64,000 nucleotides of DNA. Source: a virus. The stretch spans positions 1-64,000 of IMG/VR virus record IMGVR_UViG_3300047089_000307. One strand, written 5' to 3'. The position numbers and the translations under genes were made by a program. The notes under the pieces were generated by a model. It made no database searches. It saw only the letters and a list, made by a program, of their open reading frames with translations, and was not told where the DNA came from. How positions within the stretch are numbered: position 1 is the stretch's first letter; every line of letters begins with the position of its first letter. Positions 36,431 to 40,039 of this stretch are shown in pieces.

Positions 36431-37481
36431 TGGTGGGTCAGGCTGCATGTACTACCGGATCAAGGTCCCCCTGGAGGAGCTGGCCCGGCACGGTCATGAG
36501 GTGACCTTCCGCTCCGGCGGGAATGAGGAGGGTAACCGGCCCATCACCCTGGCGGAGATGGCCGAGCATGACGTGGTGATCGGGCAGCGGTTCAATCACT
36601 ACGCGGGCATGGGCACCTGGCGCCGCGCCCGCGGGCCGTCCAGCCGGCTGGTCTACGAGATTGATGACGACGTCTTCTCCGTGACCCCGGTCAACTGGCA
36701 GGCGTACCACGTCTACAGCCAGCCGGAGGTCCGCGAGGCTGTCATGCACCAGGCCCAGGTATCGGACCTGGTGACCGTGACCACGGAGCACCTGGCCGCG
36801 GTGATGCGCGAGCACACCGGCAACGGCAACGTCCTGGCGCTGCCGAACTGCGTCCCCGGCTGGGTGCTGGACATGGAGCGCAGGCCCCGGCAGCGCCCGG
36901 CGATCGGCTGGGCGGGCGGCGCCAGCCACGGCAGCGACGTCGGGCTGCTCGTCAGCCCCGTGCGCCGGTTCCTGAAGCGGTTCCCCGGCTGGGACTTCCA
37001 GCTTGGCGGCACGGACTTCCGGGAGACCTTCGCCCGGGAGGGGTCGCCGCGCGGGAGGCTGCTGCACGCCCGGTGGGTGCCGGTCTGCGAGGACGCGCGG
37101 GGCTATTACGAGACCGCGGACTTCGACATCGGCCTGGCCCCGCTGGCGGGAACCCCGTTTGACCTGTCGAAGTCCTGCGTCAAGGTACTGGAGTACGCGG
37201 CCCGGGGCATTCCCTCGATCGCCAGTGACTGCGAGGTTTACCGGTCGTTCATCCGCCATGGCGAGAACGGCTTCCTGGTGAAGAGGGACCATGAGTGGCT
37301 GAAGTACGCATCCGAGCTGGCCAGCGACGGGGGCCTGCGGCTGGCGATGGGCCAGGCAGCGCGGGACACGGCGCGGGAGTGGACGATCGAGGCGAATTAC
37401 CACCTATGGGAGCAGGCGTACCGGAGCCTGTTTAAGGTCAAGTCTCTTAGCGTATTATGGCCTTCGTGCGCGAGCCAGTAG
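36408..37481 (+). CDS. glycosyltransferase, GT-B/GT4-like
   Basis: YYRI, EIDDD, DIGLAPL..F..KS.VK.LEY and HGENG motifs. Confidence 0.88.
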   Translation: MRIFAGHDGGSGCMYYRIKVPLEELARHGHEVTFRSGGNEEGNRPITLAEMAEHDVVIGQRFNHYAGMGTWRRARGPSSRLVYEIDDDVFSVTPVNWQAYHVYSQPEVREAVMHQAQVSDLVTVTTEHLAAVMREHTGNGNVLALPNCVPGWVLDMERRPRQRPAIGWAGGASHGSDVGLLVSPVRRFLKRFPGWDFQLGGTDFRETFAREGSPRGRLLHARWVPVCEDARGYYETADFDIGLAPLAGTPFDLSKSCVKVLEYAARGIPSIASDCEVYRSFIRHGENGFLVKRDHEWLKYASELASDGGLRLAMGQAARDTAREWTIEANYHLWEQAYRSLFKVKSLSVLWPSCASQ

Positions 37482-39241
37482 CCAGGCAGTACCGTTACCG
37501 GGCCTATCCCGATGAGGAGCAGGCTGACCTCCTGGACTTCTACGCAGCGGGCGCCCGCGCGTTCTGGAATAAGAACGTCGCGTGGCTGCGCGCCATGGAG
37601 GGAAGTGAGGGGCATGACGACCTTGGCGCTGGCCGCCAGCTGAGCGAGGCTTACGCTTACCTCGCCAGCGTGCCCGGCATCGCTGAGGCCCTGAAGAGCA
37701 GGAAGCATCCGGAGCATGAGCGCTGGACGGCCTTCCTGCGAAAGGCAGAAAGGCCGCGCCAGCCCGGCTGGCATGCGTGGACGCGGCATTACGGGGGTGC
37801 CAGGCTCCGCGGGCAGCTGAGCGGGAACTTCTCTGCCGCCGTGCACGCTGCGCGGGAGAGCGGGATGACGTTCTGGCACGGGGGCGAGCAGCACCCGGTC
37901 TCGGCGGTCCCGTCGAAGGTCCTGCACGGGGCGTGCGGGAGCAAGGGCCAGCTCAAGGCCGCCGTGGACGCTGTCATGAAGAAGCGCGCCGCTGGCAAGC
38001 GCGCAGAGCTGCCCCGCTGGCGTGCCCGGCATGAGAGCCAGAACCTGCGCTGGCAAGTCCAGGATGGTCCCCGGAACGCGACCCGGGAGTCCCTGGTGAC
38101 GGTAACGGGCACGCGGCACGCCACCGTGCCGCTGGTAACGACGCGCGGGCACGAGGGTAATAAGAGCCTGCGCATCCGCTATCATCGCGAGCTCCCCGCG
38201 GACGCCTCAGTGTCCTTCATGCAGGTGACCTGGAATCCGGGGACCGGCTGCTACTTCGTGACGCTCACGCTGACGACCGCGCAGTACGAGGTTCCGGCCA
38301 CGACGGGCATGGCCGGCATCGACCGGGGCATCGTAAAGGCTGCTGTCACTTCGGACGGGGAGTACTACGATTCTCCGGGACTGAACCAGGGGCGCCGTCG
38401 CCGCGAGCTCCTGCTCCAGCAGTCCCTTGACTGGAAGCGCCGCGTGCTGCCGTGCAAGGGCCGGTGCGCGCACGAGCCAGGGCAGTGCTGGCGCACGTCA
38501 CTACGGTATGCACGGGTCGTGACGGCCCGGCAGCGGCTCCTGGACGCCCAGGAGGACCTCATCGATGACGGGGCGCACAAATTCTCCCGGGCTATCGCCC
38601 GCCGGTACGCGGTCGTCGTGCTTGAGGACCTGGCGAACCTGATGACGGCGTCCACGGCGAAGGGCACGGTAGCCGCCCCCGGCGTGAGCGTGCGCGCCGC
38701 CGCCGGACGCAACCGGGAGGTACGCGCGGCTAACTGGGGGCGCATTGAGCAGTACCTGGGGTATAAGGCAGGGCAGCTCCTCGGCGTCCCGGCGCCGTAT
38801 ACGTCGCGGACATGCCCGCGATGCGGGTATGTTAGCGTCATGAACCGGCCCTCCCAGGCGGAGTTCCGGTGCGGGTCCTGCGGACTCAGCGGCAACGCTG
38901 ACGTGATCGCGGCCGGCAATATCGTTAATGCAGGGAAAACCGCCCGCGCGCTGCGGGATAACGGGCAGGGATCGTCCTCCGGGATTAACCGGGGGCCTGG
39001 CGCTAGCCGGGAGCCTGCCAACACTCACAACTTTACAGTGGCCCCGGGCGAGCGCTGCGGTAGTGCGCCCGATCCCGGTCAGCGCTCGCAGGCAGGTGAG
39101 CAGCCAGGAATCGTTACCGAGCTCGACGGAACGGTGATCCCGGAGACGTGGGGCATCCCCGGTGCTCGCATCCGCGGGGGAAACCGCAGGTCACGACGGG
39201 CGAAAAAGCCGAGCGGTGGCAACACTGCCGGAGCCGGGTGA
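37457..39241 (+). CDS. cas12: TnpB-derived CRISPR-associated Cas12-like nuclease (compact type V effector); start may be GTG 37466
   Basis: YRYRAYP HTH, RuvC-I GIDRG, RuvC-II VLEDL, CPRC/CGSC Zn ribbon, RuvC-III ADVIAAGNI; abuts CRISPR array. Confidence 0.9.
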   Translation: MAFVREPVARQYRYRAYPDEEQADLLDFYAAGARAFWNKNVAWLRAMEGSEGHDDLGAGRQLSEAYAYLASVPGIAEALKSRKHPEHERWTAFLRKAERPRQPGWHAWTRHYGGARLRGQLSGNFSAAVHAARESGMTFWHGGEQHPVSAVPSKVLHGACGSKGQLKAAVDAVMKKRAAGKRAELPRWRARHESQNLRWQVQDGPRNATRESLVTVTGTRHATVPLVTTRGHEGNKSLRIRYHRELPADASVSFMQVTWNPGTGCYFVTLTLTTAQYEVPATTGMAGIDRGIVKAAVTSDGEYYDSPGLNQGRRRRELLLQQSLDWKRRVLPCKGRCAHEPGQCWRTSLRYARVVTARQRLLDAQEDLIDDGAHKFSRAIARRYAVVVLEDLANLMTASTAKGTVAAPGVSVRAAAGRNREVRAANWGRIEQYLGYKAGQLLGVPAPYTSRTCPRCGYVSVMNRPSQAEFRCGSCGLSGNADVIAAGNIVNAGKTARALRDNGQGSSSGINRGPGASREPANTHNFTVAPGERCGSAPDPGQRSQAGEQPGIVTELDGTVIPETWGIPGARIRGGNRRSRRAKKPSGGNTAGAG

Positions 39242-40039
39242 GTGAGGCGACACGCTCTTGCCGTGCAGCTGGTCAATCTGGCCCTGGTGGCAACACTGCC
39301 GGAGCCGGGTGAGTGAGGCGACTGGGCACCGGGCGAGGCGTTCTGCCCGGCGTTGCCGGTGGCAACACTGCCGGAGCCGGGTGAGTGAGGCGACTGGGCA
39401 CCGGGCGAGGCGTTCTGCCCGGCGTTGCCGGTGGCAACACTGCCGGAGCCGGGTGAGTGAGGCGACAGGTGGTGGGACGGGCTGCCCGGGTTGGTCAGCA
39501 TGGTGGCAACACTGCCGGAGCCGGGTGAGTGAGGCGACCAGCCCGCGCCGTCGCTCCGGAGAACCTTGTATTCGGTGGCAACACTGCCGGAGCCGGGTGA
39601 GTGAGGCGACAAGCAGCAGACGCCGCCGGTGAGCGTGTCCTCGGGCCGTGGCAACACTGCCGGAGCCGGGTGAGTGAGGCGACTCGGTGCGCCTGCGGCT
39701 ACGGGTGGCCGGCTTGATCGGTGGCAACACTGCCGGAGCCGGGTGAGTGAGGCGACGGCTTCCAGGCGTCGGCGAGCCGGACCACCTCGCGCGTGGCAAC
39801 ACTGCCGGAGCCGGGTGAGTGAGGCGACCGCGACTGCTGCAATGCGCTAGACAAGGCAGGTGGCAACACTGCCGGAGCCGGGTGAGTGAGGCGACAGTGC
39901 AGCGCTGATGTCAGCCTGCGCCCGCGACTTGGTGGCAACACTGCCGGAGCCGGGTGAGTGAGGCGACATCAGGACCGGCCTTACCGGTCGACGCCTCCCG
40001 GCGGTGGCAACACTGCCGGAGCCGGGTGAGTGAGGCGAC
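39216..40039 (+). CRISPR. CRISPR array: 12 identical 36-nt repeats, 11 spacers (31-37 nt)
   Basis: GTGGCAACACTGCCGGAGCCGGGTGAGTGAGGCGAC at 39216, 39287, 39359, 39431, 39503, 39575, 39648, 39721, 39793, 39860, 39932, 40004. Confidence 0.98.

Follow-up and report, generated by a model that had tools for sequence, protein, structure and literature searches.

A candidate omega-RNA-like scaffold and a type I-G leader homologue within the 3' end of a phage-borne, TnpB-derived nuclease gene

We examined a 64-kb window, the first 64 kb of the 158,651-bp virus record IMGVR_UViG_3300047089_000307 (IMG/VR), in which an open reading frame (ORF) for a TnpB-derived, Cas12n-like nuclease (P0001) runs into an array of short palindromic repeats, clustered and regularly interspaced (CRISPR). 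The 3' end of this ORF appears to contain, on the same strand, an omega-RNA-like scaffold that could serve as trans-activating CRISPR RNA (tracrRNA), a homologue of the leader found in type I-G CRISPR loci of Actinomycetota, and the beginning of the array (Table 1). The TGA stop codon of the nuclease ORF (39239-41) lies within repeat 1 (39215-51), and no promoter-like or terminator-like site was found between the gene and the array. This agrees with a first-pass annotation of the locus, which saw no intergenic space for a separate tracrRNA or leader and proposed that the nuclease gene encoded both.

P0001 keeps all three RuvC residues and the TnpB protein core, with matches to NCBIfam guided_TnpB (109.5 bits) and to Pfam Cas12f1-like_TNB. 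Its best Foldseek matches are TnpB and Cas12f. Against solved structures, the family profile scored highest with RdCas12n (9J09, 148 bits), followed by an AI-designed nuclease (129), ISDra2 TnpB (122) and LaTranC (75); the score of RdCas12n against the single P0001 sequence was 37 bits. A ~70-amino acid N-terminal insertion (residues 50-118, 37607-37810) has a low pLDDT score (predicted local distance difference test) and is absent from all relatives. The family is rare, with ~15 proteins at E < 1e-30 among 1.8 billion cluster representatives, and its neighbors are phage-like wherever the context is visible (Phage_gp49_66, DNA polymerase A, Prim-Pol). The adjacent array lacks cas1, cas2 and cas4, and neither Cas1 nor Cas2 was found in the 158-kb record, which is ~75% complete. 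A megablast search of phages gave no match, and a tblastn search of plasmids recovered distant TnpBs only.

Table 1. Features of the nuclease-array locus (window coordinates) and the basis for each assignment.
Feature	Position	Strand	Basis
TnpB-derived, Cas12n-like nuclease ORF, 594 amino acids (P0001)	37457-39241	+	RuvC residues D (GIDRG), E (LEDL) and D (NADV) present
Omega-RNA-like scaffold, candidate tracrRNA, within ORF	38936-39029	+	RNAalifold, pair counts, covariance model R1
Scaffold helix A	38940-47 with 38953-60	+	RNAalifold
Scaffold helix B (GGCAGG/CCTGCC)	38964-69 with 39014-19	+	RNAalifold
Scaffold inner stems	38975-77/39010-12 and 38999-39001/39006-08	+	RNAalifold
Candidate 7-nt anti-repeat CACTCAC	39022-39028	+	Complementary to GTGAGTG, which occupies nt -14 to -8 in each repeat (39238-44 of repeat 1)
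Full-length homologue of Actinomycetota type I-G CRISPR leader, read in frame	39048-39214	+	Pattern scan, alignment A3, hidden Markov model
Leader motif M1	39082-97	+	Leader alignment
Codons of conserved peptide island (T)VIPETWGIPG (residues 551-567)	39107-39157	+	Alignment; between leader motifs M1 and M2
Leader motif M2 (GCTCGCA)	39164-70	+	Leader alignment
Leader motif M3 (CAGGTCA)	39187-93	+	Leader alignment
Leader motif M4 (GCCGAGC)	39208-14	+	Leader alignment
CRISPR array, 12 identical 37-nt repeats, ~35-nt spacers	39215-40039	+	Repeat 1 supplies ORF stop codon

The first-pass annotation had recognized in the 3' end of the gene a GGCAGG/CCTGCC stem and a GGCGCTAGCC hairpin (38999-39008) reminiscent of TnpB omega-RNAs; all of the motifs it quoted are present, GGCAGG lying one base from the position given there (38963). 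RNAalifold and pair counts across the seven family loci that contain the proximal tail retrieved both as helices with compensatory changes among relatives. They belong to a set of four helices at 38940-39019, joined by one long-range helix to the array. Scored on the same alignment from which it had been derived, the structure paired 88.9% of the cells (69.1% in shuffled alignments), contained 17 pairs changed on both sides (7.6 when shuffled) and reached a covariation score of 0.515 (0.161 when shuffled), values that none of 500 shuffles equaled. Sliding the 3' partners by 1-3 columns reduced pairing to 34-42% of the cells. The window's own fold reproduces the scaffold helices, with a minimum free energy z-score of -2.15. 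A covariance model built from the scaffold alone (R1) matched along its full length at chromosomal tnpB 3' ends (L093, 1e-6; L110, 2e-5; L096, 3e-5; and eight more with E < 0.1), the position at which omega-RNAs begin in IS200/IS605 TnpB. The model also found a relative absent from model building (L111, E = 9e-5), and it gave no convincing match to type I-G loci. As judged from covariation and these matches, positions 38936-39029 share sequence and structural homology with the 5' domain found in TnpB omega-RNAs of actinobacteria, as the annotation had supposed for an omega- or tracr-like scaffold in this place. The scaffold is present as a single copy in the 158-kb record, and Rfam returned no match at E up to 1.

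The long-range helix pairs CACTCAC in the tail with GTGAGTG of repeat 1, an interaction that the annotation had proposed by complementarity. Within the window alone, the proposal fared no better than chance. The best ungapped helix between tail and repeat scored 24, compared with 23.4 ± 3.3 in shuffles, 66% of neighboring 280-nt segments equaled or exceeded it, and RNAduplex comparisons of the repeat and the tail, with shuffled repeats as controls, gave no excess over chance. We nearly dismissed the anti-repeat on such single-sequence scans, and it was rescued only by the comparison across loci. In nine loci, the 7-10 nt that follow a conserved GCGAAC vary together with a segment of the repeat located always ~8-14 nt from its 3' end. 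The tail element CACTCAC of the window faces GTGAGTG; GATCATC in L006 faces GATGATC; CTCGC in L069 and L073 faces GCGAG; (G)CCATC in L005, L072 and L112 faces GATGG(C); CATCAC in L111 faces GTGATG; and ACTCAG in L001 faces CTGAGT. These represent at least five distinct pair types. Scores of each element with its own repeat summed to 143, against 107.5 ± 8.1 when repeats were permuted among loci (p ~3.5e-5), for element boundaries that were set by eye after the RNAalifold result and nine loci of which some are related. The first seven loci alone gave a permutation p of 0.006, and the same covariation is seen in L111 and L112, to which we turned only once the hypothesis had been formed. A second anti-repeat suggested by the annotation, CGGTAGTGCGCC (39058-69), is present in the sequence but does not covary with the repeat (permutation p = 0.39). 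It sits in the distal part of the leader homologue, where it matches the type I-G leader consensus GGTGGTGA, and we rejected it as a chance match.

The scaffold could instead be a decaying remnant of an ancestral omega-RNA, the nuclease using CRISPR RNA (crRNA) made from the 37-nt repeat alone, as Cas12m and Cas12r do. Two relatives, L070 and L071, carry no scaffold; their RuvC-III helix continues directly into the leader homologue (L070:4354-4572 and L071:4273-4489). Both have lost the scaffold and kept gene and leader, and L071 also its array. The 594-residue length of P0001 is, furthermore, that of crRNA-only effectors, and Cas12r of Thermus phages works without a tracrRNA (bioRxiv 10.64898/2026.04.20.719267). 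Decay would not, however, preserve compensatory changes in the stems, nor would it switch a 7-nt element in step with the repeat at least five times, and the synonymous sites in the scaffold are constrained. We regard a mere remnant as unlikely, though somewhat less so than the other alternatives.

Between the scaffold and repeat 1, the ORF holds a segment that resembles a leader. A search pattern drawn from its conserved bases (TCGCAKGCAGGT, 50-80 nt, GCTCGCA, 16 nt, CAGGYCA) matched 32 metagenome and 26 genome loci, all of them from Actinomycetota where named. At least two CRISPR repeats lie within 10-40 nt downstream in 44 of the 58 loci, and the C-terminus of Cas2 is encoded just upstream in 31; six had too little downstream DNA to judge, and two (L016 and L035) were chance matches. 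One locus (L029) carries a complete type I-G set (Cas3g, Cas8g1/Csx17, Cas7g, Csb2, Cas4g/Cas1g and Cas2), followed by the leader sequence and then the array. The region is non-coding in most of the pattern loci. An alignment of nine phage-family and 31 type I-G sequences (A3) is collinear from ~12 nt past the cas2 stop to the leader-repeat junction GAGCC|G, and its homology extends ~30 nt upstream of the search pattern. Guarding against circularity, we also sampled type I-G loci independently, through the Cas4g/Cas1g protein in 401 Actinomycetes genomes. All three of the loci with an array in the flank had the same motifs at the same distances. A hidden Markov model (HMM) built from those three leaders gave a single match in the 64-kb window (39048-39213, E = 8e-4) and matched the equivalent place in L005 (1e-9), L071 (6e-6), L073 (2e-5), L006 (5e-5) and L072 (7e-4). 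The window has M1, M2-N16-M3 and M4 at the fixed distance from repeat 1 that is typical of type I-G leaders, and only the leader is shared with full type I-G loci, no Cas1 or Cas2 having been found in the record. The pattern scan, the A3 alignment and the independent HMM together support the annotation's placement of a putative leader inside the ORF, and a DNA-level leader is the simplest reading of the segment.

Other origins for the leader motifs were discarded. They are absent from the eight chromosomal tnpB loci inspected, and we rejected the idea that they form part of TnpB omega-RNAs. A fossil of the cas2 3' end was rejected as well, the alignment starting ~12 nt after the cas2 stop. A scan of viral contigs with a 17-nt motif returned chance matches only (L007-L010). 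Among the type I-G leaders themselves (L011-L068, L075, L077 and L079), we observed a fixed order of GCGCTCGCATGCAGGTCAG, often CTTGACAAsTCCAyAG, then GCTCGCA-N16-CAGGTCA, AAAtTytGCGAGCC and the repeat. Repeats of two different classes, one ending in ..CTCCATTGCGGC and the other in ..GGGCATAGAAAC, follow this one leader. No description of this architecture was found in the literature searched.

The 167 leader-like nucleotides might act as RNA, either as part of a long tracrRNA or as a processing signal, rather than as a DNA signal for integration. On the putative shared transcript, the segment is flanked by the anti-repeat and repeat 1, and it includes an inverted repeat (GCTCG/CGAGC). Against such a role, RNAalifold found no consensus structure over 40 leaders, the inverted repeat, formed by M2 and M4, shows no compensatory change, and type I-G loci lacking TnpB conserve these motifs too. 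We rejected the leader as a structured RNA on the first two grounds and give little credence to an RNA-level function in general.

The array raises the question of which effector it serves. Spacer 4 (39467-39501) is identical at 35/35 positions to a protospacer in another IMG/VR contig (L113:11179-11213), where the site lies in the gene for the terminase large subunit (Pfam Terminase_3) and has a 5'-TTC flank, and the spacer matches terL of Streptomyces phages, such as TP1604, at 31/36 positions. There is no second copy of the spacer 4 sequence in the phage record itself. These matches suggest inter-phage targeting and a Streptomyces-like host range. T-rich 5' flanks suit TnpB and Cas12 enzymes; they also suit type I-G adaptation (TTN). 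The array could mainly serve a host type I-G Cascade, as a phage mini-array using host effectors, with the nuclease using at most the first unit in cis in the manner of an omega-RNA. A leader of type I-G, 37-nt repeats and ~35-nt spacers as in type I-G arrays and a flank that also fits type I systems would accord with this possibility. The phage repeats, however, have neither the type I-G 3' handle (..CTCCATTGCGGC) nor a strong central stem, they covary instead with the in-gene anti-repeat, and gene and array are tightly coupled in every family member; we consider service to a host Cascade quite improbable. Repeats in L069 become more degenerate the farther they lie from the gene, a pattern expected of an array whose leader end is the one next to the gene.

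The repeats of the window also show a layout (GGTGGCAAC, hairpin, GAGGCGAC) that resembles, in length and arrangement, the last ~39 nt of actinobacterial TnpB omega-RNAs (L093-L110), which consist of GTTGGAATCC, a GC hairpin and GGAGGAYGTCAAC. In the 485-amino acid relative L111 there is no regular array; we saw one repeat-like unit ending GGCGAC and two GCGTAGCGAC copies ~25 nt apart (L111:1988-2130), which may be a degenerate or nascent array.

Codon usage in the ORF tail is consistent with constraint at the nucleotide level. The weak codon bias noted in the first annotation is evident in the G+C content of third (0.71 in the tail versus 0.84 in the body) and second (0.68 versus 0.53) codon positions. 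Where relatives share an amino acid, codon identity is 0.49 in the body but 0.65 in one half of the tail and 0.64 in the other, and long identical nucleotide runs are common in the tails of relatives with only 35-40% protein identity. The conserved runs include codons that are rare at ~69% G+C (GCT, AGG, TCA, GCA and GGT, in GCT-CGC, AGG-TCA and CAT-GCA-GGT), and bases remain conserved through changes of amino acid (AGG to TGG; TCA to CCA). AlphaFold2 predicted disorder (pLDDT < 50) at residues 506-550 and 568-594. The only tail part folded with confidence is an island at residues 551-560 (VIPETWG; pLDDT ~85), conserved across the family as (L/V)IPxxWG, where the IPETWG codons of the window replace a stretch that reads CTTGACAAGTCCATAG in type I-G leaders. 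The reading frame stays open across scaffold and leader in all family members. A purely protein-level account, with a functional C-terminal domain and chance hairpins in G+C-rich DNA, can point to the ~100 codons that stay open in all relatives and to the IPxxWG island predicted at pLDDT ~85, but as a sole explanation it is already contradicted by the rare codons that outlast a change of amino acid, by identical nucleotides in non-coding type I-G leaders, by the RNA covariation and by the disorder of most of the tail, and we consider it highly implausible.

Taken together, these comparisons make it reasonably likely that the locus is a phage-borne, type V-like module without adaptation genes, put together from a nuclease of TnpB type and from a leader and array captured from type I-G, in which ORF, scaffold, leader and repeat 1 overlap on one strand. 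The annotation had viewed the locus as an evolutionary intermediate in which an omega-RNA has been split into an in-gene tracrRNA and a crRNA. The omega-like scaffold with its candidate anti-repeat in the gene fits this view; the leader, by its homology, was captured from a type I-G locus and not produced by omega-RNA splitting, and the same is probably true of the array. Gene and array would be transcribed as a single RNA, and the nuclease, like TnpB and Cas12n, would bind its own message at the scaffold. The CACUCAC of the scaffold would then pair with GUGAGUG of the repeats, in cis with repeat 1 or in trans with the others, to give a two-part guide of tracr-like scaffold and crRNA. The leader, acting as DNA, would let the host type I-G Cas4/1-Cas2 insert spacers beside the gene, an addition that the compatible 5'-TTC flank fits, and the spacers would be directed at rival phages. 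More tentatively, and as a scenario in which we place rather less confidence, a TnpB would have kept the 5' half of its omega-RNA, exchanged the 3' half for a whole type I-G leader and array and retuned a 7-nt anti-repeat to the borrowed repeats, with the host type I-G Cas4/1-Cas2 feeding in spacers.

Several observations weigh against the main interpretation, besides the by-eye boundaries and relatedness already given for the permutation result. The scaffold is not universally required, because L070 and L071 lack it; R1 finds nothing in the DNA examined from either, and the scaffold-less L071 keeps a 7-repeat array, on seven contigs. The anti-repeat comprises only 5-8 bp at a chance level of complementarity in any single sequence, it is separated from repeat 1 by ~185 nt, and a self-fold of the repeat (CACU...AGUG) competes with it. 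The function of the leader is inferred from homology, and contigs from four DNA runs revealed no array polymorphism or leader-proximal spacer gain, only assembly breaks or collapse at the array. Genes for Cas1 and Cas2 could sit in the part missing from the record. The phage repeats differ from type I-G repeats and could be omega-derived, because omega-RNA ends resemble the 37-nt repeat in length and layout. Last, the open frame and the conservation of IPxxWG may reflect a protein-level role of the tail or translation that protects a read-through transcript.

Parts of this arrangement have precedents. A tracrRNA inside the disordered C-terminal tail of the ORF has already been published for Cas12n (PMC12216341; bioRxiv 10.64898/2026.03.27.714800). 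Cas12n (type V-N, formerly V-U4/C2c9; RdCas12n 9J09 and AcCas12n) combines, like the window, a small TnpB-like effector with an array that has no adaptation genes, and its tracrRNA is encoded in the DNA for an unstructured C-terminal tail. The window has the counterpart of this tail, with pLDDT < 50 after residue 505 except for the 551-560 island and with a covarying candidate scaffold and anti-repeat in the underlying DNA. The proteins are distant from each other: the single sequence scores 37 bits, and the profile reaches 148 bits, barely above the 122-129 of TnpBs. Unlike Cas12n, the window has an anti-repeat of only 7 nt, its tail holds the type I-G leader homologue and runs into repeat 1, and its family is phage-borne. 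The flanks differ as well: the protospacer adjacent motif of Cas12n is 5'-AAN, and the two sites available for the window read TTC (spacer 4) and CTTC (spacer 11).

TranC systems have been published as transposon-CRISPR intermediates with a divided omega-RNA function (Jin et al., 2025, Cell, as cited in PMC13565253). Like LaTranC (9JFO/9JFQ), the window combines a nuclease of the TnpB lineage with a CRISPR array and a putatively omega-derived scaffold, so that the omega-RNA function would be divided between a tracr-like RNA and a crRNA; the match of LaTranC to the family profile is weaker (75 bits). In the portion of the TranC literature available to us, we found no report of a class 1 leader inside an ORF. 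The scaffold matches the omega-RNA (reRNA) of IS605/IS607 TnpB in its 5' domain, the part that in Actinomycetes overlaps the 3' end of tnpB. The 3' domain and transposon end of the chromosomal relatives (..GGAGGAYGTCAAC) are absent from the window, which carries instead a leader and a multi-spacer array of 12 repeats, in a single phage copy, and its protein differs from TnpB in having REC-side insertions.

Cas12r of the Thermus Lalka phages offers another parallel, a phage nuclease with an array but no cas1 or cas2 that targets rival mobile elements and for which adaptation by the host type I-E system was proposed from repeat likeness (bioRxiv 10.64898/2026.04.20.719267). The donor or helper of the window would be an Actinomycetota type I-G system instead, as indicated by leader homology rather than by repeat likeness, and here scaffold, leader and first repeat all lie within the ORF. 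Type I-G (formerly I-U) leaders of Actinomycetota have the same motifs, order and spacing to the junction GAGCC|G as the window; they differ from it in that the window has no cas2 upstream, its segment is translated and its repeats have diverged. In-ORF tracrRNAs (Cas12n) and RNA splitting (TranC) are thus known in principle. New in the locus are the full type I-G leader homologue translated in frame, the complete superposition of ORF, scaffold, leader and first repeat, an actinophage-carried family with natural scaffold-minus members, and a leader homology that would be direct evidence for class 1 capture of the array end.

Such a natural hybrid would illustrate one route for assembling a new CRISPR system, and it offers evidence at the level of sequence for two steps, usually only modeled, by which Cas12 systems arise: the omega-RNA 5' domain is retained within the gene as a tracr-like RNA, and a leader and array are acquired ready-made from a locus of class 1 (type I-G). 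If the capture is true, some type V arrays come from class 1 arrays and not from duplication of the omega-RNA end, and a cross-type partnership of adaptation and interference, between phage and host, would still be running; the phage weapon is predicted to depend on the adaptation machinery of the host. Scaffold-plus (window) and scaffold-minus (L071) members provide a comparison for when a tracrRNA becomes dispensable. The work also defines conserved type I-G leader motifs for Actinomycetota and describes a compact effector with a simple TTC-type flank.

The remaining spacers supplied minor observations. Spacers 2 and 3 (39323-39357 and 39395-39429) are identical, and their repeat-spacer unit occurs in duplicate, which suggests that recombination and not acquisition produced the second copy. 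Wobble-masked scans with spacers 1, 5 and 11 yielded nothing in viral contigs. In a soil sample (run X17), a 151-nt contig of low depth and without repeats has near-matches, 27 nt apart, to spacer 11 and to the 3' part of spacer 7 (window 39967-40003 and 39694-39721, respectively), the former with a CTTC flank. The contig may come from a target genome struck twice in one small region.

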